Origin: Patescibacteria group bacterium
Lineage (GTDB): Bacteria > Patescibacteriota > UBA1384 > CAJBMM01
NCBI GenBank assembly: GCA_041660565.1
Contig: JBAZWC010000002.1
Coordinates: forward strand, 85,520 to 149,519
Direction: 5' to 3'
DNA: 64,000 nt
Positions 43,379 to 59,585 of this stretch are shown piece after piece (within the stretch, counting starts at the first letter, position 1; every line of letters begins with the position of its first letter). The position numbers and the translations under genes are program-made. Under the pieces are notes generated by a model. That model saw only the letters and a program-made list of their open reading frames with translations. It was not told where the DNA came from and did no database searches.

Positions 43379-44377
43379 ATGTTAGATGACAAGACAATAC
43401 TGATCACCGGTGGCACCGGATCTTTCGGCAAAAAGTTTACCGAACGCATTTTTAAGGAATACAACCCCAAGAAAATCATCATTTACTCTCGTGATGAATT
43501 TAAACAGTACATGATGCAAAAGCAGTACCCACAGTTCAAAGACAAACTACGCTATTTTATCGGTGATGTCCGAGATCGGGAACGCCTACATCGCGCTTTT
43601 GATGGTGTTGATGTGGTTATTCACGCCGCCGCCATCAAACACGTACCCGCCGCAGAGTACAACCCGTTTGAAGCAGTTCAGACCAATATTATGGGCGCTA
43701 AAAATGTCATCGATGCCGCCATCGACCGCGGAGTGAAGCAAATTGTTGCCCTGTCTACCGATAAAGCGGCCAATCCGATCAACCTTTACGGCGCCACCAA
43801 ATTAGTTTCCGACAAGCTGTTTACCTCGGCAAACGCCTACGTTGGCGGCAAAGACACTGTTTTCAGCGTGGTCAGATACGGCAACGTGGCCGGAAGCCGC
43901 GGCTCGGTTATTCCATTCTTTAAATCGCTGGTAGATCGCGGCGAAAAATCGCTGCCGGTAACCGACCTGCGTATGACTCGTTTTATGATTACCCTAGATC
44001 AAGGCGTGGATTTGGTTTTTCGCGCCATTAAAGAAGCCAGGGGCGGCGAAATTTACGTTGCCAAAATTCCATCGTTTAAAATTTCAGATTTAGCTCGCGT
44101 CATGCATCCGAAAGGCAAAATTAACGAAATCGGCATCCGCGAAGGCGAAAAATTGCATGAAGTAATGATAACCGAGGAAGATTCTCGCTTAACTTACGAC
44201 TACGGCGACCATCACATCATCTACCCCAACTTTGAATGGTGGTCTATGGATACGCACTTCAAAGAGGGTGGCAACAAGGTGCCGGACGGTTTTCGATATG
44301 CCTCGGACACCAATGAATTATGGATGGATATTCCGGAATTAACCAAATTTATTGAATCATTGGAAGTGACTTACTAA
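43379..44377 (+). CDS. pseB: UDP-N-acetylglucosamine 4,6-dehydratase (inverting), PseB/FlaA1-like
   Basis: 332 aa. ILITGGTGSFGK Rossmann motif, IIYSRDEFKQ, YGATKL catalytic region. Confidence 0.85.
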   Translation: MLDDKTILITGGTGSFGKKFTERIFKEYNPKKIIIYSRDEFKQYMMQKQYPQFKDKLRYFIGDVRDRERLHRAFDGVDVVIHAAAIKHVPAAEYNPFEAVQTNIMGAKNVIDAAIDRGVKQIVALSTDKAANPINLYGATKLVSDKLFTSANAYVGGKDTVFSVVRYGNVAGSRGSVIPFFKSLVDRGEKSLPVTDLRMTRFMITLDQGVDLVFRAIKEARGGEIYVAKIPSFKISDLARVMHPKGKINEIGIREGEKLHEVMITEEDSRLTYDYGDHHIIYPNFEWWSMDTHFKEGGNKVPDGFRYASDTNELWMDIPELTKFIESLEVTY

Positions 44378-44378
44378 T

Positions 44379-45533
44379 ATGCTTGATCATTTTATTTCAT
44401 ACGGTAAACAGTGGATTGATGACGATGATATCAAAGCTGTCACCGAGACGCTTAAAAGTGATTTTTTGACCCAAGGCCCAAAGCTGGCTGAATTTGAAAA
44501 GGCCATTTGCGATTATACCGGCGCTAAATACTGTGTTGCGGTATCAAACGGCACTGCCGCTTTGCATTTGGCTGTTTTGGCGCTAGATTTGCCAAAAGGC
44601 GAAGGCATTACGACACCAAATACCTTTGCTGCCTCGGCTAACTGTTTGTTATACGCCGGACTAAAGCCGGTTTTTGCCGACATCAAAACAGATACATATA
44701 ATATTGACCCGGCCGAAATTACCCAGAAAATTACCAAAGACACCAGAGTGATTGTGGCGGTGGATTTTGCCGGACAAGCTGCGGATATGGAAGATATTTA
44801 CCAAATGGCGCAAGCAAAAGGGATTGCGGTAATTGAAGACGCCGCGCACGCGATCGGATCAAAATATGCTGATGGCAGTTTGGTTGGATCATGTAAATAT
44901 TCAGATTTGACCACTTTTTCGTTTCATCCGGTTAAAACCATCACCACCGGTGAAGGTGGTGCTATTACCACAAACGATGAGAAACTGTATCAGAAGTTGC
45001 TTTTACTGCGGTCTCACGGCATCACCAAAGATGCGGCGCTGCTTGGCCAAAACCCCGGCCCATGGTATTACGAAATGCAACAGATCGGGTTTAACTATCG
45101 CTTAACCGACATTCAAGCGGCATTGGGCATTAGTCAGTTTAAAAAACTAGATCGATTCGTGACGCGTCGCCGTGAAATCGTAGATCAATATAATACTGCG
45201 TTTGCCAGCAACGGTTTAATCACAACCCCGCACGAAAAAGCTGGATTAAATTCGACCTTTCATTTATACGTGGTTAAAATTGACTATGCCAAATTGGGCA
45301 AAACGCGGTCAGAGGTCATGATTGAACTAAAAAACCAAAACATCGGCACTCAAGTGCATTATATTCCGGTTCACCTACTGCCGTATTATCAAAAACAGTT
45401 TGGCTATAAGACCGGTGATTATCCGGTTGCCGAAAATTATTATGACCACTGCCTTAGCTTGCCTCTTTACCCCAAAATGACCGACGAGGATGTTAAGTTA
45501 GTAATCAAGACCATTAACCAAACACTGAGTTAG
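44379..45533 (+). CDS. pseC: DegT/DnrJ/EryC1 PLP-dependent aminotransferase, PseC-like
   Basis: 384 aa. FISYGKQWIDDDDI N-terminus, FSFHPVKTITTGEGGAI lysine region. Directly follows pseB with a 1-nt gap. Confidence 0.85.
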   Translation: MLDHFISYGKQWIDDDDIKAVTETLKSDFLTQGPKLAEFEKAICDYTGAKYCVAVSNGTAALHLAVLALDLPKGEGITTPNTFAASANCLLYAGLKPVFADIKTDTYNIDPAEITQKITKDTRVIVAVDFAGQAADMEDIYQMAQAKGIAVIEDAAHAIGSKYADGSLVGSCKYSDLTTFSFHPVKTITTGEGGAITTNDEKLYQKLLLLRSHGITKDAALLGQNPGPWYYEMQQIGFNYRLTDIQAALGISQFKKLDRFVTRRREIVDQYNTAFASNGLITTPHEKAGLNSTFHLYVVKIDYAKLGKTRSEVMIELKNQNIGTQVHYIPVHLLPYYQKQFGYKTGDYPVAENYYDHCLSLPLYPKMTDEDVKLVIKTINQTLS

Positions 45534-45560
45534 CCCCTGTCGCTGCACCTAATTGGTACA

Positions 45561-45745
45561 GTACGAATTATAAATTTTCAATTTTTAATTTCAAATGAAT
45601 GGTTGCCAATTTTAAATGACTAAATAAGGAACCTTTTTAAAATTTAATCATTCGGTACTTATTCATTTAAAATTTATAATTGCTTCAGCAATTTCGTAAC
45701 TGTGCGAGCCGTGCTCGCAAGTTACATGCTTTAAAATTTAAAATT
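45561..45745 (-). repeat. R2 composite AT-rich interspersed repeat, full-length copy, inverted orientation
   Basis: Reverse complement contains both R2 modules seen at 9436-9560 and 20928-21050 (…AATGAATGGTTGCCAATTTTAAATGACTAAATAAGGAACC…TGCTTCAGCAATTTCGTAACTGTGCGAGCCGTGCTCGCAAGTT…). Confidence 0.8.
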
Positions 45746-45755
45746 AAGGGAAAAC

Positions 45756-46613
45756 ATGACTGGCATTATTATTCAAGCCCGATACAATGCATCTCGCTTG
45801 CCGGGAAAGGTGTTGAAAGAGCTGCCTTTAGGTAGTGGAATTTCAGTGTTGGCGCAAGTAATTAGACGACTAAAAAAGTGCCAGCTGGCTGATTTGGTGA
45901 TTTTGGCCACCACCGAGAATCAATCAGATGACGCCTTAGTGGACGTTGCCAACGCAGAGAAGATCCAATGCTATCGCGGCAGTACCGAGAATTTACTGGA
46001 GCGATATTACAAAGCGGCGCAAAAATATAACCTCAGCACAATCGTACGTATTACCGCCGATTGTCCATGCATTGACCCAAAAGAGGTTGATCGGCTAATT
46101 AAGAAACACCTAGCCACCAATAGCGATTTCACTTCGATGGCGCTGGGGCCGCGCACATATCCGCACGGCATTGAAGTTGAGGTTTTCTCAATCAGCGCAC
46201 TGGAGCAATCATACCAAAACGCCACCACGGATTACGAAAAAGAGCATATCAACATCTACGCCGAAGAAACCGCACCGCAGAAATTCAAAATCACCTCTGC
46301 TCCCGCCCCCAAATCACTTACCTCTCCGGACATCCGCATCACTCTAGACACCCCCAAAGACTACACCTTATTGTGCGCCGTGTATGACTTCCTTTATCCT
46401 GCGGACCCATTTTTCGACACAGCCGCAATTATCAAGCTATTTAAACTGCGTCCGTGGCTGTACGAGATCAATCGTGATGTAGTGCAAAAAAAGATGTATG
46501 CCACCGTCAAAGACGAGCTGCTAGAGGCAGAGAAGGTGCTGGGACTGCAGGAATTACATCGCGCTCGAAAATTTATCTTGCAGCAGCTGGAGAATAATGA
46601 CCAACAATCCTAA
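45756..46613 (+). CDS. pseF: CMP-sugar cytidylyltransferase (CTP_transf_3), PseF/NeuA-like
   Basis: 285 aa. N-terminal IIQARYNASRLPGKVL motif. Confidence 0.7.
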   Translation: MTGIIIQARYNASRLPGKVLKELPLGSGISVLAQVIRRLKKCQLADLVILATTENQSDDALVDVANAEKIQCYRGSTENLLERYYKAAQKYNLSTIVRITADCPCIDPKEVDRLIKKHLATNSDFTSMALGPRTYPHGIEVEVFSISALEQSYQNATTDYEKEHINIYAEETAPQKFKITSAPAPKSLTSPDIRITLDTPKDYTLLCAVYDFLYPADPFFDTAAIIKLFKLRPWLYEINRDVVQKKMYATVKDELLEAEKVLGLQELHRARKFILQQLENNDQQS

Positions 46614-47601
46614 AATTTACATCGTAACCGAGGGTGGGGGTGATATTGGATACGGCCACCTGATGCGTTGCCTATCACTCTGCCAAGCGTTCGCGGAAAA
46701 AAACATTGCGCCCGTAATGCTAATTGATAGTGATGGCGCCAAAGTTAAGCTTAATCAATTTCCAAATGCGGAAATGTTGGCCTGGCATAAAAACCTAGAT
46801 TTACTCTACAATCACATTAAAGACGCCGATGTGGTGATTGTTGACTCATTGCTGGCACCGGAATCGCTTTGGACCGACATCCACAACTACTGCAAGGTAG
46901 CGGTTTTATTGGATGATTTTATTCGTCGCAAACATGTAAAAGGCGTTGTTGTTGACTGGACAGTGTTGGCCGACCAAAAATTTTATCAAGAGCAAAACCA
47001 TGACGTCACTTACCTACTTGGCACCAAATACACCGCTTTGCGCCAAGAGTTTTGGGACATACCACCAAAGCAAATCAGCCCGACTCTTACGAACATTTTA
47101 GTCACGTTCGGCGGCAGCGATGTGGCTAATATGACACCATTAGTAGTTGAATTACTCAAAAGTCATTATCCCCACGCCGACGTGAAGGTGATAATTGGCC
47201 CCGGCTTTACCAACTTGAAGGAAATTGAAGGATTAGCGTATTTGAGCTGCGAGCTAATTATGCAACCCTCCGCTTCAGAGATGGTTAAGTTGATGCTGTG
47301 GGCGGATGTTTGCATTAGCGCCGGCGGTCAAACTTTTTACGAGCTAGCCCGCGTGGGCACGCCCACTATCGGGGTGCAAGTAGCAGATAACCAGCGCGAT
47401 GATGTTTCAGGTTGGACTGCAACCGGTTTTCTGCAATTTGCCGGAGAAGCTGATGACCCTAATATTAAACAAGAAATCGCCAATCAACTTGATCATCTAG
47501 CTAATTTTGAATTACGAGAAAAAGTTTCAAAAATTGGACAAACACAAATTGACGGGCAGGGCGCGCGGCGTTTAGTCAAAGCGATTTTGGAGGAGGCATG
47601 A
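46597..47601 (+). CDS. pseG: UDP-2,4-diacetamido-2,4,6-trideoxy-beta-L-altropyranose hydrolase, PseG-like (GT28 C-terminal fold)
   Basis: 334 aa. IYIVTEGGGDIGYGHLMRCLSLCQAF N-terminus characteristic of PseG. Overlaps pseF by 17 nt. Confidence 0.7.
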   Translation: MTNNPKIYIVTEGGGDIGYGHLMRCLSLCQAFAEKNIAPVMLIDSDGAKVKLNQFPNAEMLAWHKNLDLLYNHIKDADVVIVDSLLAPESLWTDIHNYCKVAVLLDDFIRRKHVKGVVVDWTVLADQKFYQEQNHDVTYLLGTKYTALRQEFWDIPPKQISPTLTNILVTFGGSDVANMTPLVVELLKSHYPHADVKVIIGPGFTNLKEIEGLAYLSCELIMQPSASEMVKLMLWADVCISAGGQTFYELARVGTPTIGVQVADNQRDDVSGWTATGFLQFAGEADDPNIKQEIANQLDHLANFELREKVSKIGQTQIDGQGARRLVKAILEEA

Positions 47602-48557
47602 AACCGGTTTTTGAGCAACGCGCATCTACCATTTTATTTAACTTGTTTCGTCAGCTTGATCATACAAAATCGGTCATTGTTCCGGCAAACGTTTGTCCGA
47701 TTGTAGCCGTAACGCTAATGAAAGCCGGGCAACCCTTTGAGCTGGTTGACATAAATAAAGAGACACTTTGCCTTGACGAAGAGTTCACTTTGCACCAGAT
47801 CAAAAAACATCCGCAAAAATATGCCGGCGTGTTGTTTGTACATACCTACGGTAACCCCCATCAACCTGAACCATTTTTTCATTATATTAAGCAAATCGCC
47901 CCGGATATATTAATCATTGACGATCGATGCCCCGGTCTGCCCGAGTTTGATCTGCCGCCAACTGCCGCCGATGCGGTAATATTCAGCACCGGCTATGCCA
48001 AATACATTGAATTAGGTTTTGGTGGATATGGCTATATTAAACCCGAGGTAAAATATGAGCCAAAACAACTGCCGTTCAACGAGCACGATCATCAGGCGTT
48101 GGTTGAGCAAGAACGCCAGGCTCAAGAAACGTTGGCGCCTTTTAGCTATCATGATTCAGATTGGCTGGATACCACTAAACCAAAAATCTCATTCGACCAA
48201 TACAAGCTAGAGATCATCGCTAAAATTCCGGAAGCGCGACTTCATCAACAAAAATTGAATCAGATTTATGCCAAAAATATCCCAGCAAAATATCAACTGG
48301 GAGACGAGTTTAGTCAGTGGCGATTTAGTATTCTGGTGCCAGATAAGGTAAAATTATTGAGGATGATCTTTGACCATGGGTTGTTTGCCAGCTCGCATTA
48401 CCCATCGCTAAACGGGATTTTTGGACACGGCGCCGACCAAAACGCGGCAAAATTACATTCGCAAGTGGTTAACTTATTCAATAACCACCGCTACACCGAA
48501 GATCAAGCAAAGCTGACATGCGATGTTATAAACAAGCATCTAAAAGAATGTGCTTAG
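47598..48557 (+). CDS. Hypothetical protein, DegT-like N-terminal fold (possible PseH functional substitute)
   Basis: 319 aa. IVPANVCPIVAVTLMKAGQPFELVDIN resembles the aminotransferase small-domain N-terminus. Translationally coupled to pseG (4-nt overlap). Confidence 0.35.
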   Translation: MKPVFEQRASTILFNLFRQLDHTKSVIVPANVCPIVAVTLMKAGQPFELVDINKETLCLDEEFTLHQIKKHPQKYAGVLFVHTYGNPHQPEPFFHYIKQIAPDILIIDDRCPGLPEFDLPPTAADAVIFSTGYAKYIELGFGGYGYIKPEVKYEPKQLPFNEHDHQALVEQERQAQETLAPFSYHDSDWLDTTKPKISFDQYKLEIIAKIPEARLHQQKLNQIYAKNIPAKYQLGDEFSQWRFSILVPDKVKLLRMIFDHGLFASSHYPSLNGIFGHGADQNAAKLHSQVVNLFNNHRYTEDQAKLTCDVINKHLKECA

Positions 48558-48566
48558 CCACCCCCC

Positions 48567-48636
48567 TGTCATTTCGACTCCCTCCGGGCAGAGCCTCGAG
48601 CATTGTCTCGAGAGTGGAGAAATCTATAATAATAAG
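48567..48636 (+). repeat. R1-related repeat copy i (TGTCATTTCGACTCC ... GGAGAAATCTATAATAATAAG)
   Basis: Same head and tail as copies f and h. Directly followed by an inverted R2 copy. Confidence 0.65.
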
Positions 48637-48768
48637 AATTATAAATTTTCAATTTTTAATTTTTAATGAAAGGTAACCAATTTTAAATGACTAAATAAGG
48701 TACTTTTTTAAAATTTAATCATTCGGCACTTATTCATTTAAAATTTAACATTTAGAATTTAAAATTAT
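48637..48768 (-). repeat. R2 AT-rich interspersed repeat, copy 5, inverted orientation
   Basis: TATAAATTTTCAATTTTTAATTTTTAATGAAAGGTAACCAATTTTAAATGACTAAATAAGGTAC…ATCATTCGGCACTTATTCATTTAAAATTT. Confidence 0.75.
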
Positions 48769-48831
48769 TGGAGTGGAAACTCACGAGGTCAAAATGACAA
48801 TTTAACCACACTAAATTAAAAAGGAGATCTA

Positions 48832-49503
48832 ATGTTATTTAAGGATTTTGAGGGATTAAAATTTCCGGTTGAATACGTAACCCGATATTTTTTCAAAGAA
48901 AAACTGCATACCCAGTCCGGTCGAGTTTTGGAACTGGGCTCAGGTAATGGCAATAATTTGATGCTATTTTATCAGTATGGTTGGGATGTGGTAGGCGCCG
49001 ATATTGATCCCGAGCTCATTAAACAAGCCGATCACAACTTTAAGCTAACCGGGCTAAAAAACCACTACGAGCACGTAGCGGCCGATATGGTGGAATTCGT
49101 GGAAAAGTATCAAGGCGAGCCGTTTGATGCGTTTCTAATGCCCCACAGCATCTACTACTTACCAATGGATCAGATTGTCAGGCTACTCGATTTGATTAAA
49201 AGCAAAAAGCTAATCAAACCCAATGCTTCGTTTTTTCTTACCGTGCGAACACCAGAGGATTATCGGTTCGGCCGCGGCAAACAAATCGGTGACAAAACAT
49301 ACGAATTGGCCATCGACGAAACCGGTGAAAAAGGTTGTACTATCACGTTTTTCAGCGAATTTGAAATCATCGAGCTATTAAAAAAATATTTTACTATCGA
49401 TTCGCTCCATGTCTCTAGACAGCTGTATGGTAATTTTATGCATGATCGGTTGGTCAATAACAGCGATATTACTATTTGGGGTAACATTACAATTCGAAAA
49501 TAG
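48832..49503 (+). CDS. Class I SAM-dependent methyltransferase
   Basis: 223 aa. Motif I VLELGSGNGNNLMLF, motif II/III region. RBS AAAGGAG. Confidence 0.7.
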   Translation: MLFKDFEGLKFPVEYVTRYFFKEKLHTQSGRVLELGSGNGNNLMLFYQYGWDVVGADIDPELIKQADHNFKLTGLKNHYEHVAADMVEFVEKYQGEPFDAFLMPHSIYYLPMDQIVRLLDLIKSKKLIKPNASFFLTVRTPEDYRFGRGKQIGDKTYELAIDETGEKGCTITFFSEFEIIELLKKYFTIDSLHVSRQLYGNFMHDRLVNNSDITIWGNITIRK

Positions 49504-49664
49504 TGATTTTTTGCATTTTATTTTTATGTGATATACTTTAATAAAGCTCAGTTTATCTAATTAATTTTAAATGTTGTCGCCTAGACTGTTTACGTGTAAA
49601 CGTAAGTGGTGGCAGTGTTTTTCCCCGTAAAAAAATATTTTGTTCGTTTAAAATAGGAGTAGTT

Positions 49665-49865
49665 ATGGTTTTTAAGATACTGTTAGGAATTGCGGTGGCA
49701 GTACTGTTGCCGTTCGATGATGCACACGCATATATTGACCCAGGTACGGGTAGTCACGCTATACAAGTACTAATCGCCGTAATCGCCGGGGTATCCTACT
49801 CCGCTCGAATCTATTGGACCAACATCCGTGTCTTTTTAAGCCGTTTCAGCAAGAAAAATAAATAG
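49665..49865 (+). CDS. Small (66-aa) membrane protein
   Basis: RBS AGGAG 5 nt upstream. Two hydrophobic segments. TATACT -10 about 120 nt upstream. Confidence 0.4.
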   Translation: MVFKILLGIAVAVLLPFDDAHAYIDPGTGSHAIQVLIAVIAGVSYSARIYWTNIRVFLSRFSKKNK

Positions 49866-49868
49866 ACT

Positions 49869-51269
49869 ATGACAGTACAAAGCCATATTGATAAAAACTC
49901 GGGCTCATTTCGAGATCCCAGTGGATACATTTTTCGTCATAATAACGAAATCTATCGCTACATTGCCCCAAATTATTTGCCCCATTACCGTATGTTAATG
50001 GATTCCGGCTTGTATCAAAAACTAGTCGATGAAGGCTTGCTAATCTCGCATCAAGAAAAACCAAATATGCCCGCGATTGATGGCGGTTTAATCATCAAAC
50101 CAACCATGATTCCGTTTATATCGTATCCATATGAATGGTGTTTTAGCCAAATTAAAGACGCGGCGCTAACTACCCTTAAAATCCAAAAAATCGCCCTTGA
50201 ACACAATATGGTGCTTAAGGATGCTAACGCCTACAATATTCAGTTTTTTCAGGGCAAACCGATCTTAATTGACACTTTGTCTTTTGAAAAATACGAGGAA
50301 AATGCGCCCTGGGTGGCGTACCAACAGTTTTGCCAACATTTTTTGGTCCCATTGTGCTTAGCCACGTACACCGACGTATTTTTGCCCAGATTAACCAGCA
50401 TGTTTTGCGACGGCATTCCGCTGGAAATTGCGGTAAAACTGCTGCCAACGCGGGCTCATTTTAACTTGGGATTGCAAATGCATTTGTTTGCCCACGTTAA
50501 ATTTCAAAAAAACTATAATGAAAAACCCAAAGACGCTAAGTCTTTTAAGATCAAGAAGTCTGGTTTGCTGGCGCTAATTTTTGATCTCGAACGCGTGGTT
50601 AATAAATTACATTTCCCAAGCAGGCACACCGAGTGGGGAGACTATTACACTAATACCAATTACACTTCCAAGGCGATTCTAGAAAAAGAAAATATGGTGG
50701 CAAAATTGATCGACAAATTGGATATTAAGACGGTTTGGGATGTCGGGTCAAACGATGGACGTTTTAGCCGCATGGCAACAGACAAAGGATTATTTACGAT
50801 CTCATCAGACATAGACCCGGTGGCGGTAGAGAAAAACTACCTGCAAACCAAAGTAAAAAACGAAAAGTTGATGCTGCCGTTAATTGTGGATCTAAACAAC
50901 CCCAGCCCTAACATCGGCTGGAACAATCAAGAACGAGAAGCTTTTTTTGGCCGTGCTAAAAGCGACTTGATTCTAGCACTGGCGCTAATCCACCATATTG
51001 CCATTTCCAACAACGTCCCATTTGATCAAGTAGCAAGCTTTTTTGCCCCGCTCTGTCGATATTTAATGATCGAATTTGTGCCCAAAGATGACTCCAAAGT
51101 GCAACGTCTGTTAGCCAGTCGCAAAGATGTTTTTGTGCACTACAACCAACCGGATTTTGAAAAATCATTTTCTCAGTATTTCAATATCAAAGAAAAGATT
51201 TTAATTAAAGGAACCAAACGCACCCTGTATTTGATGGAAACAAAGACTCGCGTACCTCACAATGAATAG
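49869..51269 (+). CDS. Two-domain protein with a kinase-like N-terminal region (tentative) and C-terminal class I SAM methyltransferase
   Basis: 466 aa. N-terminal LKDANAYNIQF…IDTLSFE is weakly reminiscent of APH/Kdo-kinase HxD..N..(I/L)D motifs. C-terminal VWDVGSNDGRFSRMA is MTase motif I. Confidence 0.4.
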   Translation: MTVQSHIDKNSGSFRDPSGYIFRHNNEIYRYIAPNYLPHYRMLMDSGLYQKLVDEGLLISHQEKPNMPAIDGGLIIKPTMIPFISYPYEWCFSQIKDAALTTLKIQKIALEHNMVLKDANAYNIQFFQGKPILIDTLSFEKYEENAPWVAYQQFCQHFLVPLCLATYTDVFLPRLTSMFCDGIPLEIAVKLLPTRAHFNLGLQMHLFAHVKFQKNYNEKPKDAKSFKIKKSGLLALIFDLERVVNKLHFPSRHTEWGDYYTNTNYTSKAILEKENMVAKLIDKLDIKTVWDVGSNDGRFSRMATDKGLFTISSDIDPVAVEKNYLQTKVKNEKLMLPLIVDLNNPSPNIGWNNQEREAFFGRAKSDLILALALIHHIAISNNVPFDQVASFFAPLCRYLMIEFVPKDDSKVQRLLASRKDVFVHYNQPDFEKSFSQYFNIKEKILIKGTKRTLYLMETKTRVPHNE

Positions 51270-52788
51270 AACAAAATTAATTAATAAAGTTAAAAAATAC
51301 TTCAGCCCACTCTACCCTTGGCTTTATCTTTTGTACACCCTGCTTTTGTTTACCGGATATGGTATTCATTTCACTAATGTTTTTTACCTCGCACTAAATT
51401 TGATTATTGCCGGCATCGGACTGTTTGTTCTAATGCTAATTCTAGGCAAATTTACCTCAGACCGAGCCAAAATTGCCTGCATCACCCTGGTTTTTGAAGT
51501 AATTTATTTTAACTACAAAGCATTCGAAGACTGGGCGCTTACTCTACCTGCCTCTGATATTCTATTTAAACTGCACCTCCCCGTTCTACTGACCATCGCG
51601 GTTTTAATCTTTTTCAGCATCAAAGTAATCAAATTTTCCAAGCCGATCACCGCTTTTACCAAGGTTGCTACGTTTGTGGTGATAATTTTAGTGCTGGACA
51701 GTTTGTACGTAGTCATTGATGCTCGCGCGAAAGACTACTCATTAAGAAACAGGGTCGAAAACTCGGTTACCGAGTACCAAAGCGAGGATAAGCCGGACAT
51801 CTATTACATTATTTACGATCGCTACACCGGCTCTAAGGCCTTAAAAAATTTGTACGGTTATGATAATTCAGCGTTTACAGACGAGCTAAAGAAGCGCGGT
51901 TTTTATTATGCGGACAAAAGCTCAAGCAACTATTTCGGTACTTTGCATTCGTTAACTTCAATTATGAATATGGATTTTAATGATTCCAAAGCCAGCAACG
52001 ATCTGTTTAAAGACAGTGATTTGTTGGCGATGCTGGACAATAATCGGGTTACCTTTACCTTGCAGAAAATGGGTTATTCGACATACAACGTCGGATCTTG
52101 GTGGACCGACACCAACCGTAACCCCAATATGATATCACCAAAGCAAATGGCACCAATGACATTAATGGACTACACCACTTACTATTTGCTCAGGGGCACG
52201 TTGGCTGAACCACTTAAAAAGCCCATCACCAACTATCAAATGAAACACGTTTTTAATTATCGCGTAAAATCACTTGATGAAATAAAAAATAATCCGTCAC
52301 CAAAATTTGTTTTTATGCATTCATTATCGTCTCATACCCCGTTTGTTTACGATGCCAAATGCAATATCAAATCTGATATCAGTCAAGAGAGTGTCGAGAT
52401 ATATTTGGATAATCTGCAGTGTGTTAATCAGCATATATTACAAATTGTGGATACAATTTTAAACAAACCGGGAGACAAACCGGTCATCATTCTACAATCA
52501 GACGAAGGGCACGAAATCACTCAAGCCCTACCAACTACTACTGATGCGCCAGACGCAGCTCTGCTTGAGAAATTTTCCACCCTCAGTACTTTTTATTTCC
52601 CAGATCAAAAATACGATCAGCTTTATCCGGAAATTTCATCGGTTAACACCTTTCGCGTGGTCTTGAATAAATTATTTAACGCCAATATTGCATTATTACC
52701 GGACAAAAGTTACGTCAGTGGCGATCAATTCGAGATAAACGATACCAAAGAGGTAACAAATCGCATTAGCGAATTGATCAGAAAATAG
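51262..52788 (+). CDS. Membrane-anchored sulfatase/LtaS-like (alkaline-phosphatase superfamily) transferase
   Basis: 508 aa. 5 N-terminal TM helices, then PDIYYIIYDRYTGS…SLSSHTPF typical of the LtaS/phosphoglycerol or phosphoethanolamine transferase fold. Confidence 0.5.
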   Translation: MNRTKLINKVKKYFSPLYPWLYLLYTLLLFTGYGIHFTNVFYLALNLIIAGIGLFVLMLILGKFTSDRAKIACITLVFEVIYFNYKAFEDWALTLPASDILFKLHLPVLLTIAVLIFFSIKVIKFSKPITAFTKVATFVVIILVLDSLYVVIDARAKDYSLRNRVENSVTEYQSEDKPDIYYIIYDRYTGSKALKNLYGYDNSAFTDELKKRGFYYADKSSSNYFGTLHSLTSIMNMDFNDSKASNDLFKDSDLLAMLDNNRVTFTLQKMGYSTYNVGSWWTDTNRNPNMISPKQMAPMTLMDYTTYYLLRGTLAEPLKKPITNYQMKHVFNYRVKSLDEIKNNPSPKFVFMHSLSSHTPFVYDAKCNIKSDISQESVEIYLDNLQCVNQHILQIVDTILNKPGDKPVIILQSDEGHEITQALPTTTDAPDAALLEKFSTLSTFYFPDQKYDQLYPEISSVNTFRVVLNKLFNANIALLPDKSYVSGDQFEINDTKEVTNRISELIRK

Positions 52789-52856: not shown

Positions 52857-53615
52857 ATGGCTAATAAGGCAATCCACACCAAGGTAGTCTCAGCTAACCA
52901 TGAAACGGAACTGCGTCGGGATTTTCAAAAACTATTTCGTGACTGCCCCATTCCGGACAATGAGATATTAGAGAATTTGTCCTTATTCTTAAACCGCCAA
53001 ACTATGTCTCGTATTATATTTATGAACGAGATGTATCAGCGAATCATTAATGTTCACGGTGTAGCCATGGAATTCGGCACTCGTTGGGGCCGAAACTTGG
53101 CAATGTTTGAATCGTTTAGAGGAATGTACGAACCGTTCAACTTTAATCGTAAAATTGTTTGTTTTGATACCTTCTCCGGGTTTCCATCTGTCGATGCCAA
53201 AGATGGCAAAGCCGATATTATTAAGGAGCAAGCTTTTTCCACCACCGAAAATTACGATGAGTATTTAACCAAAGTACTGGACTATCACGAAAAAGAAAGC
53301 CCAATCTCACACATCAAGAAATATGAGATCGTTAAAGGTGATGCTACCAAAACCGTCCACCAATATTTCATTAATAATCCGGAAACCATTGTGGCCATTG
53401 CCTATTTTGATTTTGATATCTACGCCCCAACCAAAGAATGCCTGGTGGCGCTCAAAAACCACGTTACCAAAGGCACAGTCATCGGGTTCGATGAATTAAA
53501 TCTACACGATTACCCAGGTGAAACATTGGCTTTCAAAGAGGTGTTTGAGTTGGATAAATATGCCATTCGCCGCTCACCTCTAGTCCCCAACGCTTCGTAC
53601 ATTGTGATTGAATAA
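52857..53615 (+). CDS. Macrocin-O-methyltransferase (TylF)-family sugar O-methyltransferase
   Basis: 252 aa. GVAMEFGTRWGRNLAMF, CFDTFSGFPS, VAIAYFDFDIYAPT motifs. Confidence 0.7.
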   Translation: MANKAIHTKVVSANHETELRRDFQKLFRDCPIPDNEILENLSLFLNRQTMSRIIFMNEMYQRIINVHGVAMEFGTRWGRNLAMFESFRGMYEPFNFNRKIVCFDTFSGFPSVDAKDGKADIIKEQAFSTTENYDEYLTKVLDYHEKESPISHIKKYEIVKGDATKTVHQYFINNPETIVAIAYFDFDIYAPTKECLVALKNHVTKGTVIGFDELNLHDYPGETLAFKEVFELDKYAIRRSPLVPNASYIVIE

Positions 53616-53635
53616 CAAATCTACGCGAGGTTAAT

Positions 53636-54331
53636 ATGAGATGCGCCATAATGCAACCGACCTATTTGCCATGGCTCGGCTACTTTGAGTTGATGCTGTC
53701 TTCTGACGTTTTTGTCTATTTTGACGATGTCCAATTTGTGAGCAAAAGTTGGCAGCAACGCAATCGCATTAAAACCGCCACCGGCGAGCTAATGTTGACC
53801 GTGCCAGTGTTAAAAAAAGGCGAGCACGAGCAGGTAATCAATCAAACTTTAATCAATAATCAAGAAAATTGGCGACGTAAACACCTTGGATCGATTGAAA
53901 ACAGCTACCGCAAAGCACCTTATTTTGACCATTACATTGATGGGATACGTGAAATCTATGCGCGCGATTTTACCAAATTAATTGATTTGAATGTGGCGCT
54001 AAATGAGTTTGTGCGCGCAAAGGTGGGCATTACTACCCCGGTCAAATATTCGTCTCAAATTTGCCCGCCCGCAGAACGAAACGCCCGCATTGTTGACATC
54101 TGCCATAAAATTGGTGCCACCGAGCTGTACGACGCCGCCGGCGCTGAGGCAATTTTGGATTTGGATTATTACAAAAAGAATAACGTTAAAATGATTTTTC
54201 AGCATTATAACCATCCGATTTACAAGCAACAGTTCGGCGAATTTCTGCCGTATATGTCGGCAATCGACCTGCTCTTTAACGAAGGTGAAAAAGCCAAAGA
54301 GATCATCATTAGCGGAGGCATCAATGATTGA
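53636..54331 (+). CDS. WbqC-like family protein
   Basis: 231 aa. MRCAIMQPTYLPWLGYFELM N-terminus typical of WbqC (PF08889). Confidence 0.6.
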   Translation: MRCAIMQPTYLPWLGYFELMLSSDVFVYFDDVQFVSKSWQQRNRIKTATGELMLTVPVLKKGEHEQVINQTLINNQENWRRKHLGSIENSYRKAPYFDHYIDGIREIYARDFTKLIDLNVALNEFVRAKVGITTPVKYSSQICPPAERNARIVDICHKIGATELYDAAGAEAILDLDYYKKNNVKMIFQHYNHPIYKQQFGEFLPYMSAIDLLFNEGEKAKEIIISGGIND

Positions 54332-55367
54332 AATTGGTCACCGAAAGATTGGATCGGGGGAACCGGCGCTAATTGTAGCGGAGATTTCGGGGAATCACCT
54401 GCACAAGTTTGATCTGGCGGTCAAAACCATCCACGCCATGAAAGAAGCCGGTGCGGATGCGGTAAAACTGCAAACCTTCACCGCCGATACTATCACTTTA
54501 GATGCAAACACCAAGTATTTTCAGATTAAAGACACCATTTGGGCCGGGCAAAATATGCACAAACTTTTTGCCGAGGTAAGCATGCCCTGGGATTGGCAAC
54601 CGAAATTGAAAAAGGTGGCCGAGGATTTGGGAATGATGCTTTTTTCGACCCCGTTTGATTTTAGTTCGGTGGATTTTCTAGCTGAAATGGGCGTACCGTG
54701 TTACAAAGTAGCCTCGCCGGAGATTGTTGATTTACCGTTAATTGAACATATCGCCTCTAAAAACAAACCGGTCATATTAGCTACCGGTGTGGCGGCACTA
54801 GCCGATATCCGCGCTGCCGTTAATGCTTGCCACAATGTTGGAAATCACCAAATTATCATCCTAAAATGTACTTCGGCGTATCCAACTCCGTGGGATGAGG
54901 TCAACTTACAAACCATGGTAGATATTAAGAAAAAATTCAAGACCGTGGTCGGCATATCTGACCACACCCCCGGATCAGTAGTACCAATTTCGGCAGTAGC
55001 GCTAGGCGCATCAATGATTGAAAAACATTTTATTTTAGACCGACATTTGGGCGGCCCGGACTCATCATTTTCGCTTGAACCCAATGAATTCAAAAAAATG
55101 GTAGACGAAATCCGTCAAGCTGAGAAAGCGCTCGGTCACGTCAACTATCAGCTAACGCCGGGGATGAAGATTGAGCGAAAACAAGGGCGATCTTTGTTTG
55201 TAGTGGCTGATATTAAAAAGGGCGAGATTTTTACCACAGACAACGTCCGGTCCATCAGACCCGGTGATGGCTTACCGCCAAAATTCATAGGCGAAGTTTT
55301 AGGCAAAAAAGCTAAATCTGACATTAAAAAAGGCAATCCACTAACCTGGAAACAAATTATTAAATGA
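54324..55367 (+). CDS. pseI: Nonulosonic (pseudaminic/N-acetylneuraminic) acid synthase, NeuB/PseI family, with C-terminal SAF domain
   Basis: MIEIGHRKIGSGEPALIVAEISGNH…, TIM barrel plus SAF (…VVADIKKGEIFTTDNVRSIRPGDGLPP…). ATG 54324 after GGAGG. Overlaps the wbqC-like end. Confidence 0.85.
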   Translation: MIEIGHRKIGSGEPALIVAEISGNHLHKFDLAVKTIHAMKEAGADAVKLQTFTADTITLDANTKYFQIKDTIWAGQNMHKLFAEVSMPWDWQPKLKKVAEDLGMMLFSTPFDFSSVDFLAEMGVPCYKVASPEIVDLPLIEHIASKNKPVILATGVAALADIRAAVNACHNVGNHQIIILKCTSAYPTPWDEVNLQTMVDIKKKFKTVVGISDHTPGSVVPISAVALGASMIEKHFILDRHLGGPDSSFSLEPNEFKKMVDEIRQAEKALGHVNYQLTPGMKIERKQGRSLFVVADIKKGEIFTTDNVRSIRPGDGLPPKFIGEVLGKKAKSDIKKGNPLTWKQIIK

Positions 55368-56815
55368 ATATTATTATCAATGACTTTGACGACCCGGAGC
55401 TGTCCGAAGTAACTTTTAAAATTTTGCGTGATTTTAAGGCGCAACACTGCGCTGCTATCTATAACAACGTGCCAACCAAGGTGCCAAAACACGTTAAATG
55501 CGATCGATTTGATTGGGAGAAAATTATCTTTTTTGCCGATTACGACGTTAATTGGAATAATATTACCCCGTTAGACGAAGAAATTATCGAGTCTTACTCT
55601 CAAACTGAAACAGTGGTAATAAAAATGATGGACCGGCTGGAAGTCCGGCGTCCCCTCTCGTATCAGATGCGCAAAGAAATGTATTTGAAACACCTTCGAT
55701 TTTGGCTAGATTACATCAAAAAGAATCACATTGACTTATTTTTTTCGACCAACACCCCACACGAAATATATGACTTTGTGATTTATGATATTTGCAAAAA
55801 GCAGGGCATTCCCACCCTTTTTACCCACCAATCGCAAATTGATGATACCTCTTTGTTACTTAATGATTGGCAAAAATCGATCGACAACTTACCTTTAATA
55901 ATGAGCCAGCTCAAAGGCAAACCGATTAAGTTATCTGAACGATTCGAACGGATTTTTAGCTACTATTCCCACTCTAACCCTACCCCCGGGTCAAAAATCA
56001 CCCTAAGTTATACCAACCAACGTTTTACCATTCATAAAATAATTCAGCCAATTCAGGTGATAATTAAATTACTCACCACCTTAAAACGTACTATCAAGCG
56101 CCTGCCCATTTACCTTGTCGTTTATACTCGACGAGAGATAATTGGCATTAGTACGGCTTATTTACACTGGTTTTATCGCCAACACACCACAAAAGCTGAT
56201 CTAAAACAAAAATACATCTACTTTCCGTTGCACTATCAGCCCGAATTAACCACTTCACCTGGTGCTGGCGAATTTGTTAACCAGGTTTTAATTGCTACCT
56301 TGCTGTCACATTACGCGCCCAAAAACGTCTTGATTTACATTAAAGAGCATCCGGCACAAAACGCTCGCTGCCGATCCACTAGTTATTTCCGAGAGTTGCT
56401 AAACATGCCGAACGTACGGTTAATGCCCGTAAAAACTAGCACGTACGAGCTAATCGATCACGCCCAAGCGGTGGCAACCGGTATGGGCACGGCAGGTTGG
56501 GAAGGAATTTTTCGGGGTAAACCGGTATTGATGTTTGGCCACGATTTTTACCAGTACGCCCCGGGCGTATTCCCCATCAAAACAAATGCGGACTGCGCTA
56601 AGGCGATGACCCAGATTTTTACCGGTCAGTATAAATATGACGAAAATAATTTACGCATATTCTTAAAAGCAGTGGAGATGACTACCATTTCGGGAACAAC
56701 AGATCTGCTTTACCGCCAACAATTTGGAGTCAACGAAGCACAAAATAGCCAGAATATCTATGGCGCCATCGCCAAACGCCTAACTGACATGGGATTCGCC
56801 AAAAATGATCGATAG
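55364..56815 (+). CDS. GT-B transferase, capsule-polysaccharide (KpsS/KpsC-like) or TagB/F-like
   Basis: 483 aa. …YIYFPLHYQPELTTSPG…IKEHPAQ…VATGMGTAGWEGIFRGKPVLMFG. Paralog at 58135..59553. Confidence 0.5.
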   Translation: MNIIINDFDDPELSEVTFKILRDFKAQHCAAIYNNVPTKVPKHVKCDRFDWEKIIFFADYDVNWNNITPLDEEIIESYSQTETVVIKMMDRLEVRRPLSYQMRKEMYLKHLRFWLDYIKKNHIDLFFSTNTPHEIYDFVIYDICKKQGIPTLFTHQSQIDDTSLLLNDWQKSIDNLPLIMSQLKGKPIKLSERFERIFSYYSHSNPTPGSKITLSYTNQRFTIHKIIQPIQVIIKLLTTLKRTIKRLPIYLVVYTRREIIGISTAYLHWFYRQHTTKADLKQKYIYFPLHYQPELTTSPGAGEFVNQVLIATLLSHYAPKNVLIYIKEHPAQNARCRSTSYFRELLNMPNVRLMPVKTSTYELIDHAQAVATGMGTAGWEGIFRGKPVLMFGHDFYQYAPGVFPIKTNADCAKAMTQIFTGQYKYDENNLRIFLKAVEMTTISGTTDLLYRQQFGVNEAQNSQNIYGAIAKRLTDMGFAKNDR

Positions 56816-58142
56816 CATCAAATCTATGTTAAAAACTGCCAGTTTGCGCCAAATTATCGCCAACTCGTTTTGGATAATGCTGGATAATATTGTGCGCATT
56901 GGCGTGGGTTTTTTTGTTGGGGTTTGGGTAGCGCGCTACCTTGGTCCAAGCCAATACGGATTATGGAACTACGCCATTTCTTTCGTAGCTATATTTAGCG
57001 TGATCGCCAACCCCGGTTTTAATGATATTGTCATTCGTGACGTGGTCAGAATGTCCGAAAAAAGAGGTGAGGTTCTGGGCACCTCGTTTTTCTTACGCCT
57101 CGTTGGCGCTTCAATCGCCTCGGTTTTGGCAATAATAATTATTTTAATACTGTCACACCGCGACTTTCTAACCACCGCATTGGTAGCAGTTTCGGCGGTT
57201 GGCTTAATTTTCCAGTCATTTGATGTGATTTCATTATGGTTCGAGTCAAGAGTGAAATCTCAAAAATCAGTCACAGTTAGATTGATTGCTTTCTCTGTTT
57301 CCAGCGCGATTAAAGTAGCATTAATACTTTCACACGCCTCTTTAATTTACTTTGCCCTGGCCAGCATTATCGAACTTGGTTTAAGCGCCATCGGGATAAT
57401 TCTGGCATACTGGCACGATAAACAGTCGTTTCGCGCTTGGCAATTTACCATTCCTTATGCCAAAACGATGCTTCGCAACTGCTGGCCAATTATGGCAGCA
57501 GGCGCATTGAGTATGGTTTACCTACGCGTGGATAAAATATTGGTAGGTAATTTGATTAGCGATTCCGCTTTGGGTAACTACTCCGTTGGCACCATGCTAA
57601 CCGAATCATTGCGTTTTGTGGCCATCGCCATCACCGCCTCTGTCTTCCCGGCAATCATCTACTCCAAACAGCAAAACGAAAAACTATACCTGCATCGGCT
57701 GCAAATGCTTTATAACTTTATGATTTTGATGGCGGTGGTAATAGCCGTGCCAATTACCATTTTTGCCCATCAAATTATCCATTTACTCTATGGTGATCAG
57801 TTTAGCCAAGCCGCCACGGTGTTATCGATTTACATTTGGACGAATGTTTTTATGTTCTCCGATTTTGCCGCGTCAAAATGGTTCTACACCGAAAATCTGC
57901 AAAAATTCATCCTGTATAAAGATTTGGCGGGCGCGATAGTCAGTTTGGCGCTCGATTTGATATTGATCCCACGCATTGGAGTAATCGGCGCCGCCATCTC
58001 TGGGATCATCTCGATTATGATTGTAACCTACCTTGGCAACCTGTTCTTCCCCCAAACCCGAATCGTTTTCCGAATGCAAACCGCTTCCTTTTTCCATTTT
58101 TTGTCGTATCATAAGCTTAAAAGCGAGATAAACAGTGATTAA
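56805..58142 (+). CDS. Polysaccharide flippase (Wzx / MOP superfamily)
   Basis: 445 aa, 12 TM helices. Overlaps neighbours on both sides (coupled). Confidence 0.75.
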   Translation: MIDSIKSMLKTASLRQIIANSFWIMLDNIVRIGVGFFVGVWVARYLGPSQYGLWNYAISFVAIFSVIANPGFNDIVIRDVVRMSEKRGEVLGTSFFLRLVGASIASVLAIIIILILSHRDFLTTALVAVSAVGLIFQSFDVISLWFESRVKSQKSVTVRLIAFSVSSAIKVALILSHASLIYFALASIIELGLSAIGIILAYWHDKQSFRAWQFTIPYAKTMLRNCWPIMAAGALSMVYLRVDKILVGNLISDSALGNYSVGTMLTESLRFVAIAITASVFPAIIYSKQQNEKLYLHRLQMLYNFMILMAVVIAVPITIFAHQIIHLLYGDQFSQAATVLSIYIWTNVFMFSDFAASKWFYTENLQKFILYKDLAGAIVSLALDLILIPRIGVIGAAISGIISIMIVTYLGNLFFPQTRIVFRMQTASFFHFLSYHKLKSEINSD

Positions 58143-59553
58143 AGTATTGTGGATTCTAAATAAATACGTTGACGGGCAAAACCACAGCCAGTTTTATCCG
58201 TATTTTTTGGCGGATTTGGAAAAAGAGTGCTTATCAAAAGAAATTCAACTTGAGTTTACCTATTTTAGCGATGCGCAAAAAAAGTGCGATCGGACGCAAC
58301 ATCATCATTTTTTCTTTGAACATCATCGCAAAATAACTGATTTCCACCGAGAAGCGGCTCGCATTGAAAACGAATATAATTTTACCCTAAATCACGCCTA
58401 TTATTCGGACATTATTCAGGTCACCAAAACTCAAGATACTCGTCGCATAACCGTACCGGAAAAAGAGCTTAATAATCATCAATTATTAGTAGAGAAATTT
58501 GTCTACCTAGAGAACTTAGTCAAAAAGAACGGGTATGACGTTATTTTTTGCGATCAATCTCCTGAGGCCGAAGCGGAATTTGGACGGGTGATAGCGCTGA
58601 AAAATAATTTGGTTTTCATTCGTCATGGCGAAGGTTTTTTGGCCAACAGCTTATTCAGCCAACAATTCGAGTTCGGCAAAGAGCGATTGTCAGAAGCGGT
58701 TTTGAATACAGACGTTACACTAGAACAAGCCAAAGAGTTTGTGCGAGATTTTATTAAAAACAAAAGGCCGCCGTATCAATATCCGGAAACCCACAAAGCC
58801 AGCGCCTTAAAGTTTTATTCCGCTCGCATCGCTCATTTTTACCGCTACCCCAATTTTATTAAAATGGCTTTGTCTCAGCCGTGGCTGTGGTTTGAGGAAA
58901 AATGGCTAAAAAGACGACTGGAAAAGCAGTTTGACCCCACCGCATCGTATCTGTTTTTAGGATTGCAGCTGCCAACCGAATCTACCATAGTGCTGCGTTC
59001 GCAACCATACGCCAATCAATCACTAATTATTGAGGCCATCAGCCGAGTCTTACCCGATAACACCCTGTTATATGTGCGTGAACATCCAAAATGGCGTAAA
59101 CATTTTCCGGCGCGATTCCTTGGTCAAATTGCCTCACTACCAAACGTGCGTTTAATTTCGCCACAAATCCCGGCATGGGAGGTTATTCATCATGCCAAAG
59201 CGGTTTTAACCTACAACTCTACCATCGGCATTGAAGCGCTAATGCACGGCAAGCCGGTGCTCTCTTTTGCGCCAAATGTCTACATCAACCAACACCCGGC
59301 CGTTACTTTGTGCACAAATTTATATGATTTGGACCATAGCTTGGCTAAGTTGGTTAATACTAAAGTTGAGATAGAGGACACTTACAAATACATCTACAAA
59401 ATGATGCGTATCAGCAGCTGGGTGCCATTGTGGGCCAGCGGATTTTTATCTGAAGATGATGCCCAAAAAAAGGCCGGCGTGTTTAGCCAGCATTTACTAT
59501 TAGCGATTAAAGATTGCCAAAATTGGCAAAAAAATAACGGGCACTTGCGCTAG
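58135..59553 (+). CDS. GT-B transferase paralog (KpsS/KpsC-like or TagB/F-like)
   Basis: 472 aa. …YLFLGLQLPTES…VREHPKW…LTYNSTIGIEALMHGKPVLSFAP. Same architecture as 55364..56815. Confidence 0.5.
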   Translation: MIKVLWILNKYVDGQNHSQFYPYFLADLEKECLSKEIQLEFTYFSDAQKKCDRTQHHHFFFEHHRKITDFHREAARIENEYNFTLNHAYYSDIIQVTKTQDTRRITVPEKELNNHQLLVEKFVYLENLVKKNGYDVIFCDQSPEAEAEFGRVIALKNNLVFIRHGEGFLANSLFSQQFEFGKERLSEAVLNTDVTLEQAKEFVRDFIKNKRPPYQYPETHKASALKFYSARIAHFYRYPNFIKMALSQPWLWFEEKWLKRRLEKQFDPTASYLFLGLQLPTESTIVLRSQPYANQSLIIEAISRVLPDNTLLYVREHPKWRKHFPARFLGQIASLPNVRLISPQIPAWEVIHHAKAVLTYNSTIGIEALMHGKPVLSFAPNVYINQHPAVTLCTNLYDLDHSLAKLVNTKVEIEDTYKYIYKMMRISSWVPLWASGFLSEDDAQKKAGVFSQHLLLAIKDCQNWQKNNGHLR

Positions 59554-59585
59554 CAAGCACCCGCTTTGGAGCAACCATCAGCTGG

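Follow-up and report, generated by a model that had tools for sequence, protein, structure and literature searches.

Pseudaminic acid (Pse), found on the surface of pathogens, is a sugar targeted both by inhibitors and by chemoenzymatic synthesis, and its cytidine monophosphate (CMP)-activated form is made in Campylobacter and Helicobacter by six enzymes (PseB, PseC, PseH, PseG, PseI, and PseF), a pathway that is regarded as fixed. Two further described systems come close to the case reported here, namely the Flm pathway of Caulobacter crescentus (FlmA, FlmB, FlmH, and FlmD together with NeuB and FlmC), which uses the GNAT FlmH and glycosylates flagellin via FlmG (PMC7591256), and the Tannerella forsythia system for Pse5Am7Gra or a legionaminic acid (Leg) derivative, which has PseH and the transferase Tanf_01245/BFO_1060 (PMC5420450). 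Here, we analyzed a 64-kb stretch of DNA (hereafter, the window) from a metagenome-assembled genome of Patescibacteria, which matches the reduced-genome host expected in a preliminary description of this DNA, and focused on a block of genes at positions 43379-59553. On curated family scores, this block is confirmed to carry a genuine Pse-type nonulosonic acid pathway. If the chemistry of the Pse pathway as such is already known, what is new here is a recurrent PseH-less architecture built around the WbqC family, along with the version of it found in a Patescibacteria genome, in which a short DegT-like protein (sDegT) and a methyltransferase (MTase) are added. Judging from gene context, our best reading, which we rate as likely as not, is that WbqC N-acylates the sugar in place of PseH and that sDegT and a class I MTase tailor the group so introduced.

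A pseudaminic acid locus without PseH

The Pse assignments were decided by the curated NCBIfam equivalog cut-offs for PseB (TIGR03589), PseC (TIGR03588), PseG (TIGR03590), PseI (TIGR03586), PseH (TIGR03585), and PseF (TIGR03584). The following genes of the block score above them:

43379-44377, + strand: pseB, inverting UDP-GlcNAc 4,6-dehydratase (TIGR03589, 528 bits against a cut-off of 407.75; Pfam Polysacc_synt_2, 8.6e-104)
44379-45533, + strand: pseC, UDP-4-amino-4,6-dideoxy-N-acetyl-beta-L-altrosamine transaminase (TIGR03588, 516.1 bits against 423.5)
46597-47601, + strand: pseG, UDP-sugar hydrolase (TIGR03590, 159.8 bits against 153.55; Glyco_tran_28_C)
54324-55367, + strand: pseI, pseudaminic acid synthase with NeuB and SAF domains (TIGR03586, 465.1 bits against 340.25; start taken from the gene call in L001)

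These scores bear out the PseB, PseC, PseG, and NeuB/PseI-family calls of the preliminary description as well as the Pse type, rather than a sialic acid (Neu) or Leg type, that it had proposed. Indeed, the synthase stays at 318.3 bits on the NeuB/NnaB model, under the cut-off of 399.65, and the transaminase falls below the cut-offs for LegC (231 against 420), WecE, and ArnB. Because the equivalog scores are Pse-specific, the synthase is not assigned to the sialic or legionaminic acid synthases, nor are PseB and PseC generic dTDP-sugar enzymes.

As in Campylobacter and Helicobacter, the PseB, PseC, PseG, and PseI equivalogs lie in one co-directional cluster, with a cytidylyltransferase and a nonulosonic-acid-type transferase adjacent. 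The window departs from these systems in that WbqC, a short DegT-like pyridoxal phosphate (PLP)-dependent protein, and three methyltransferase-type genes are interleaved with the pathway genes, in that the cytidylyltransferase fails the PseF equivalog, and in that PseH is missing: neither TIGR03585 nor any other GNAT/Acetyltransf or LbH/Hexapep family was found among the ~45 window open reading frames (ORFs) scanned with NCBIfam or Pfam, in agreement with the earlier remark that no GNAT PseH is obvious. The cytidylyltransferase is encoded directly upstream of pseG:

45756-46613, + strand: CTP_transf_3 (SpsF/FlmC-like) cytidylyltransferase (Pfam PF02348, 1.7e-22), overlapping pseG by 17 nt

For this gene, first called PseF-like, the assignment as a cytidylyltransferase stands and the assignment to the PseF equivalog does not, the protein giving no match to TIGR03584 at E ≤ 1e-3, a model on which the PseF of a related locus (L026) reaches 316.8 bits. 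Its nearest solved relative is annotated as a "cytidylyltransferase" (PDB 6oew, 4.4e-36), and the enzyme is presumed from its family to be the CMP-Pse synthetase. In Caulobacter, the cytidylyltransferase FlmC, which has no homology to PseF and is encoded just upstream of the PseG-type FlmD, works in the reconstituted pathway (PMC7591256). The window resembles that system in its non-PseF cytidylyltransferase directly upstream of a PseG-type gene, FlmC being likened here by gene position and not by sequence, and in an acetyltransferase step that is not tied to one orthologue; it differs in having no GNAT among the scanned ORFs, no flagellar context, and a Wzx/GT-B route.

WbqC in clusters without PseH

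The gene directly upstream of pseI, and overlapping it, encodes a member of the WbqC family:

53636-54331, + strand: WbqC family protein (PF08889, 6.8e-74, 248.8 bits, residues 7-221 on model positions 1-216 of 218)

It had previously been listed as WbqC-like without being assigned a role, and the full-length match to PF08889, a family of more than 3,000 proteins, upholds that identity. We surveyed metagenomes with a WbqC profile search and then scored the retrieved loci with the window proteins, which gave 80 loci, 43 of them of at least 5 kb. WbqC is embedded among pse genes in 13 of these 43. One such locus (L121) is a compact operon of six overlapping genes, PseB (488.6)-PseC (476)-CTP_transf_3-PseG (236.5)-WbqC-PseI (486.6), that is, a six-step pathway with WbqC in the place of PseH, and the same gene order is found in L124 and L135. 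When Pfam was run on the 93 ORFs of ten loci combining pse genes and WbqC, WbqC was found in 10, CTP_transf_3 in 10, NeuB in 9, DegT in 8, and class I MTases in 5-6 of them, and no acetyltransferase family was among the Pfam families present in at least four of the ten loci. A plasmid of a cultured organism, Mariluticola halotolerans, likewise carries pseB-pseC-pseF-PIG-L-pseG-neuB-hyp-WbqC-NAD(P)-MTase and no PseH. WbqC is thus the common denominator of the PseH-less pse clusters examined, one of which (L026) ends at a contig end.

The same ten loci also hold Radical_SAM in five cases and a B12-binding domain in four (L098, L103, L130, L131, L162, and others), neither of which is present in the window; B12-binding radical SAM enzymes suggest that the Pse substituent of these relatives undergoes C-methylation or some other radical modification.

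The neighbours of WbqC include enzymes that make free sugar amines, namely DegT aminotransferases and PIG-L/LmbE deacetylases, and enzymes that could cap a new amine, namely methyltransferases and, directly adjacent in several loci, GNATs. In Streptomyces, WbqC belongs to an operon, proSx-GT4-WbqC-lmbE-tRNAProX-murG, with a dedicated ProRS paralogue and a tRNA (PMC10404621), and the amino sugars of O antigens commonly bear amide-linked amino acids and N-acetyl-amino acids (PMC7685785). By an analogy of gene order only, this setting recalls the logic of mycothiol- and bacillithiol-type pathways (GT4, LmbE deacetylase, amino-acid ligase, GNAT): WbqC, next to a deacetylase or an aminotransferase plus capping enzymes, would occupy the slot of the enzyme that acylates the sugar amine, though no similarity between it and MshC, BshC, or Fem-type enzymes was detected.

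On megaplasmids of the Bacillus cereus group (28 Bacillus records), WbqC lies in a small-molecule-like amino-sugar cluster, which in B. thuringiensis pKBT365 (L093, 3446-11303) reads sugar dehydrogenase, DegT, epimerase, class V PLP enzyme, 293-aa GNAT, WbqC, PIG-L deacetylase, sugar-phosphate isomerase, and MFS transporter. Distant blastn did not locate the E. coli wbqC gene, which is presumably linked to the N-acetylglycyl group of O121. Campylobacter PtmG (Cj1324), considered as a possible WbqC protein involved in acetamidino formation, was dropped as its membership in the family was unconfirmed; it is probably of the PseA/WbpG type.

A short DegT-like protein and accompanying methyltransferases

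Between pseG and the noeA/noeB-like cassette described below, and again upstream of wbqC, the block carries the following candidate tailoring genes:

47598-48557, + strand: sDegT, short DegT-like PLP-dependent protein of 319 aa, translationally coupled to pseG through an ATGA overlap (4 nt)
48832-49503, + strand: class I S-adenosylmethionine (SAM) MTase (Methyltransf_23/25/11)
52857-53615, + strand: predicted CalS11-like (TylF-type) sugar O-methyltransferase (PDB 4gf5/3tos, E 1.9e-59, residues 13-249 against 16-253)

ORF 47598 belongs to a family of more than 1,300 proteins of ~315 aa, for which the name sDegT was coined in this analysis. Its sequence points to a divergent, N-terminally shortened DegT-like protein of PLP fold type I: ~50 N-terminal residues of the DegT fold are missing, the score on Pfam DegT (PF01041) is 19.6 bits against a cut-off of 19.8 and covers residues 21-89 only, and the best PDB match is NtdA (4k2b, E 3.6e-4). 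In a profile alignment to the window PseC (265 columns), K135 falls on the Schiff-base lysine of PseC (SFHPVK), and 26 sequences all have D108, D109, S130, and K135. Since sDegT keeps the PLP lysine, its chemistry should be of the aminotransferase type, and a role as an acyltransferase is unlikely.

The distribution of the family associates it with WbqC more than with Pse. WbqC lies at most 3.4 kb from sDegT in 68 of 81 genome loci, most of the remainder being cut at a contig end, and in Anaerolineae the commonest arrangement is GT2-WbqC-(~220-aa class I MTase)-sDegT-DegT-RmlB-RmlA-GT2, a locus in which no acetyltransferase is found. Further contexts are glycan loci of Paenibacillaceae and Dojkabacteria, no plasmid occurrence was found, and the bulk of the family is in non-pse dTDP-sugar contexts. 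The WbqC-MTase-sDegT genes stand beside DegT-RmlB-RmlA as well as beside pse genes, so that they follow a C4 aminotransferase in two distinct pathways of nucleotide sugars. Nor is sDegT confined to Pse: together with WbqC, it accompanies a C4 (or C3) sugar aminotransferase. The loci of the nearest relatives of the window sDegT are pse loci with no PseH or GNAT, namely L026 from Methylococcales (pseB-pseC-NanM MTase-pseF-pseG-sDegT-MTase, then the contig end), L090 (PseB-DegT-MTase-WbqC-CTPtr-PseG-sDegT-NeuB/SAF), and L091 (MTase-CTPtr(285 aa)-PseG-sDegT-MTase-x-x-WbqC-NeuB/SAF).

Both methyltransferases had been recognized in the preliminary description, as a class I enzyme and a TylF-family enzyme, and the profile and structure matches listed above agree with it. 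The former has an orthologue directly after sDegT in L026 (143.8 bits) and in L091. The latter is a clear homologue of CalS11, a characterised TDP-rhamnose 3'-O-methyltransferase, and a homologue of it follows pseC in L103 (150 bits).

A proposed route and its rivals

We propose that the block makes a CMP-activated Pse-type sugar and places it on a lipid-linked surface glycan. As their curated family membership shows, PseB and PseC convert UDP-GlcNAc into UDP-4-amino-4,6-dideoxy-beta-L-AltNAc, PseG removes UDP, and PseI condenses the hexose with phosphoenolpyruvate; the SpsF/FlmC-like CTP_transf_3 enzyme would make the CMP-sugar. WbqC, as a putative amide-forming enzyme acting on free sugar amines, may N-acylate the 4-amino group, with an aminoacyl-tRNA as a candidate donor; sDegT and the adjacent class I MTase would then modify the acyl group by transamination and methylation, and the CalS11-like enzyme would add an O-methyl. 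Finally, the GT-B enzymes, whose HP-motif C-terminal domain is shared with KpsC/KpsS and with the Tannerella Pse/Leg transferase, would transfer the sugar, and Wzx would flip the product. From the proposed WbqC, sDegT, and MTase steps, the predicted sugar is a Pse whose N7 substituent is not acetyl and is probably methylated, rather than Pse5Ac7Ac.

A wider version of this proposal, which we advance only tentatively, would make WbqC a new amide-forming family for nucleotide-sugar amines, working maybe via aminoacyl-tRNA, that has displaced PseH in widespread pse clusters, with sDegT acting on the aminoacyl group rather than on a keto-sugar. Together, in Patescibacteria, Chloroflexota, and others, they would decorate 4-amino-4,6-dideoxy sugars and Pse with methylated N-acyl groups derived from amino acids.

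Several points weigh against the acylation of the sugar by WbqC. The literature describes WbqC as uncharacterised; no solved sequence relative was found, and a Foldseek search of its AF2 model (pLDDT 93.9) against the PDB gave no significant neighbour, so that neither a fold nor an acyl donor can be inferred from the model. PseG clears its cut-off only marginally. No clear orthology was found between the window class I MTase and those standing by WbqC or sDegT in Anaerolineae, L090, and Mariluticola, and WbqC, MTase, and sDegT are therefore not called a strictly conserved three-gene unit. The Pfam tally of the ten pse loci lists families with at least four members, among which rare acetyltransferases could hide. 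Some WbqC loci do hold a GNAT, and one pse locus (L110) has both WbqC and a weak PseH-like GNAT (47.6 bits against 93.1), so that WbqC and an acetyltransferase are not strictly exclusive. Lastly, the DNA in view amounts to 64 kb of a genome with a contig of at least 374 kb, and PseH could therefore be encoded elsewhere.

The last two of these points are also what speaks for a canonical Pse5Ac7Ac pathway, in which an N-acetyltransferase (PseH or a promiscuous GNAT/LbH enzyme) would lie outside the window and WbqC, sDegT, and the MTases would act later, either on CMP-Pse in the manner of Campylobacter PseA/PtmG/PtmH or on another sugar of the same glycan. This explanation, which we regard as possible though doubtful, has precedents in Caulobacter, where PseH activity is redundant and encoded apart from the remaining pathway genes (PMC7591256), and in the late modification of CMP-Leg by PtmG/PtmH, which is established (PMC3766260). 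It accounts less well for the recurrence of PseH-less clusters of pse genes and WbqC in unrelated lineages, including overlapping six-gene operons and a complete plasmid locus, and for the presence of WbqC and sDegT beside DegT-RmlB-RmlA clusters that lack an acetyltransferase. Moreover, the genomes of Patescibacteria are small and have little redundancy.

We consider it unlikely that C4 is not N-acylated at all, its amine being left free or N-methylated by the class I MTase in the manner of TylM1/DesVI, with sDegT and WbqC introducing or processing a second nitrogen function. The recurrence of small class I MTases beside WbqC and sDegT would fit such a scheme, as would the fact that pathways of the desosamine/forosamine type typically have two DegT-family enzymes and an N-methyltransferase; however, the minimal Anaerolineae unit has no oxidoreductase or dehydratase for a second keto group, the PseG and PseI equivalogs are by family definition tuned to a 2,4-diacetamido substrate, and acyl exchange accounts better for finding WbqC together with PIG-L deacetylases and GNATs. 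As to the suggestion of the preliminary description that ORF 47598 might itself be a non-canonical substitute for PseH, it is very improbable even though the 4-nt overlap with pseG exists, the pseG-ORF junction is kept in L026, L090, and L091, and this ORF has no other established role, because it is a DegT-like fold-type-I PLP protein with conserved catalytic Lys and Asp, it occurs in 0/80 WbqC-centred metagenome loci (neither in the 13 that carry pse genes nor in the compact L121 operon), its family is found mostly in non-pse dTDP-sugar contexts, and we know of no fold-type-I PLP member that is an acyl-CoA N-acyltransferase.

A noeA/noeB-like cassette within the block

Next to the genes of the route proposed for WbqC, three further genes of the block form a module of their own:

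49665-49865, + strand: 66-aa signal/transmembrane peptide with an AY-I-DPGTGS motif (gene call in L001), first gene of the noeA/noeB-like cassette
49869-51269, + strand: NoeA-like protein, with a conserved N-terminal domain of no known fold family and a C-terminal class I SAM MTase domain
51262-52788, + strand: NoeB-like membrane protein with an alkaline-phosphatase/sulfatase-superfamily domain (Pfam Sulfatase, 1.3e-10)

The closest described system is the nodL-noeA-noeB host-range operon of Sinorhizobium meliloti, which the window resembles in its NoeA homologue, preceded by the same AY-L/I-DPGTGS membrane peptide and followed by a NoeB-like protein, and from which it differs by having no nod-box or Nod-factor context and by a weak similarity to NoeB (E 1e-4). 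ORF 49869 has at least 8,000 homologues at ~55% identity, matches no Pfam domain, and shares 35% identity with S. meliloti NoeA over 96% of its length. The best Foldseek match of its AF2 model (pLDDT 84.6) is WbdD (E 4.5e-8), over ~230 of 466 columns, which is consistent with the MTase domain alone, and a profile search of the PDB with the N-terminal domain gave 0 matches; the string LKDxxxYN...IDTLSF in this domain may be a kinase-like motif. ORF 51262 has three hydrophobic stretches in residues 37-158. We know of no established biochemical role for NoeA or NoeB.

A ~70-aa peptide with the motif AY[ILV]DPG[TS]GS accompanies the NoeA-like gene in 7/7 loci examined (the window, L087, L088, L089, L095, L096, and L057), S. 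meliloti pSymA included. Directly after the NoeA-like gene comes a ~520-aa membrane protein in the window, L057, L087, L088, and L096, which is NoeB by annotation in S. meliloti; it is found one gene further on in L089 (735 aa), and none was seen in L095. This protein falls in the Pfam sulfatase superfamily in the window, L088, and L089, the ~526-aa gene of L087 having no Pfam match and the L057 partner showing marginal similarity to ORF 51262. In L088, the trio is by itself, with housekeeping genes on either side. These features suggest that the peptide, NoeA-like, and NoeB-like genes are a separate, self-contained envelope-modification cassette inserted in the Pse block. The MTase domain at the C-terminus of ORF 49869 and the sulfatase-superfamily membrane protein, initially described as an LtaS/sulfatase-like transferase, are both real, but neither is in any evident way an enzyme of Pse tailoring; they belong to a cassette that also occurs alone elsewhere. 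The 66-aa gene had been overlooked in that description.

On S. meliloti pSymA, the peptide gene is an unnamed "hypothetical protein" between nodL and noeA. A 447-aa gene adjoining WbqC in L004, considered as a relative of ORF 49869, proved unrelated. In L087 (1-14215), the cassette is surrounded by an ulosonic-acid-type locus consisting of GFO_IDH, SDR, CTP_transf_3, HAD, NeuB without SAF, the peptide, a 535-aa protein, the NoeA-like gene, the 526-aa protein, and Capsule_synth, and the next genes encode a protein resembling a class II aminoacyl-tRNA synthetase (tRNA-synt_2b, weak) and a GNAT, a second hint of amino-acid ligation alongside such glycans.

Glycan assembly and the surroundings of the block

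The downstream part of the block holds the genes for transfer and export:

55364-56815, + strand: GT-B ulosonic-acid-type glycosyltransferase 1, with an EHP motif (PF05159, 4e-8, 33.5 bits against a cut-off of 20)
56805-58142, + strand: Wzx-type MOP flippase (Polysacc_synt, 8.4e-23; Polysacc_synt_3, 5.6e-21)
58135-59553, + strand: GT-B ulosonic-acid-type glycosyltransferase 2 (PF05159, 1.6e-10, 41.4 bits against 20; KpsC, PDB 8fux, E 0.0023)
59536-59565, no strand: terminator-like hairpin with a 13-bp stem, ending the block between convergent genes

Both GT-B proteins pass the gathering score of PF05159, the family of the KpsC/KpsS beta-Kdo transferases, and match KpsC structures over the HP-motif region; they differ from these transferases in that only ~90-130 C-terminal residues match, on the C-terminal part of the model. 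The earlier view of two paralogous KpsS/KpsC-like enzymes is therefore kept for the family, and for paralogy only over the C-terminal ~128 aa, where the two are 32% identical (E 1e-18) and which contains the E-H-P motif. GT-B 2 also reaches 29.1 bits on TIGR04396, below its cut-off. A comparable picture comes from Tannerella, whose surface glycan carries a modified, non-diacetyl Pse, as is predicted for the window, and whose transferase has a conserved C-terminal CMP-binding region with an HP motif (PMC5420450). The window proteins match the BFO_1060 family model (NF046086) exactly and only there, at 26.4 bits (GT-B 1) and 37.3 bits (GT-B 2) under a cut-off of 200, and their N-terminal halves are unrelated to it. 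With no Kdo pathway in the locus, CMP-Pse rather than CMP-Kdo is the likely donor, and the GT-B pair most likely draws on the CMP-Pse derivative. Homologues of these enzymes lie near pse genes and WbqC in L103 and L172. GT-C-like membrane proteins flank the block on both sides and, with Wzx, suggest a lipid-linked, flipped glycan.

The block is one unbroken co-directional run of 16 genes on the + strand, with short or negative spacers, and its left edge is a divergent intergenic region (43214-43379). The genes named in the preliminary description are all present on the + strand at the coordinates that it gave, and the MOP/Wzx identity holds for both flippases, the one correction being the start of the first, which is 34813 and not 34873. 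Over 48-54 kb the GC content drops to 0.39-0.40, compared with roughly 0.40-0.54 across the remaining window (0.54 at 42-44 kb), which is consistent with an insertion of foreign modules; the segment with MTase, NoeA, NoeB, CalS11, and WbqC may be of a different origin from the pseBCG part.

A larger envelope region encloses the block, with the second Wzx, a GT4, a CARDB/DUF11-type surface protein, and a large PTPS_related membrane protein on one side (34813-43214), and YdjM, DUF218, an LIC_10190-family membrane protein, and a PMT_2 (GT-C) protein reaching the window end on the other (59586-63987). Directly upstream of the block, a TagD-like CTP_transf_like cytidylyltransferase (PF01467, 4.9e-13; 41587-42152), with a strong 10-bp GC-rich hairpin after it, could provide the same envelope polymer with CDP-glycerol or a comparable donor. 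Upstream of the block, the window encodes RecA, GroEL, FtsK, RNase J, YchF, and a Na+-pyrophosphatase; no tRNA or Rfam RNA was found anywhere in the window. Also upstream, enolase is split into two overlapping ORFs on the - strand (31815-33139), one (32252-33139) covering positions 1-232 of the 425-position eno model and the other (31815-32342) positions 103-282 of Enolase_C, so that this glycolytic gene is either frameshifted, a pseudogene, or misassembled.

Significance

If the proposed route is true, it would give a first function to WbqC and to the short DegT-like family, explain how bacterial amino sugars acquire N-acyl groups of the amino-acid type, for which most of the enzymes are unknown, and predict new Pse derivatives. 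The noeA/noeB cassette, with its conserved peptide, provides a handle on two Rhizobium host-range genes. In the library that we searched, no literature linking nonulosonic acids to Patescibacteria was found; here, an ultra-small Patescibacteria genome devotes about 16 kb to an elaborate nonulosonic-acid glycan.

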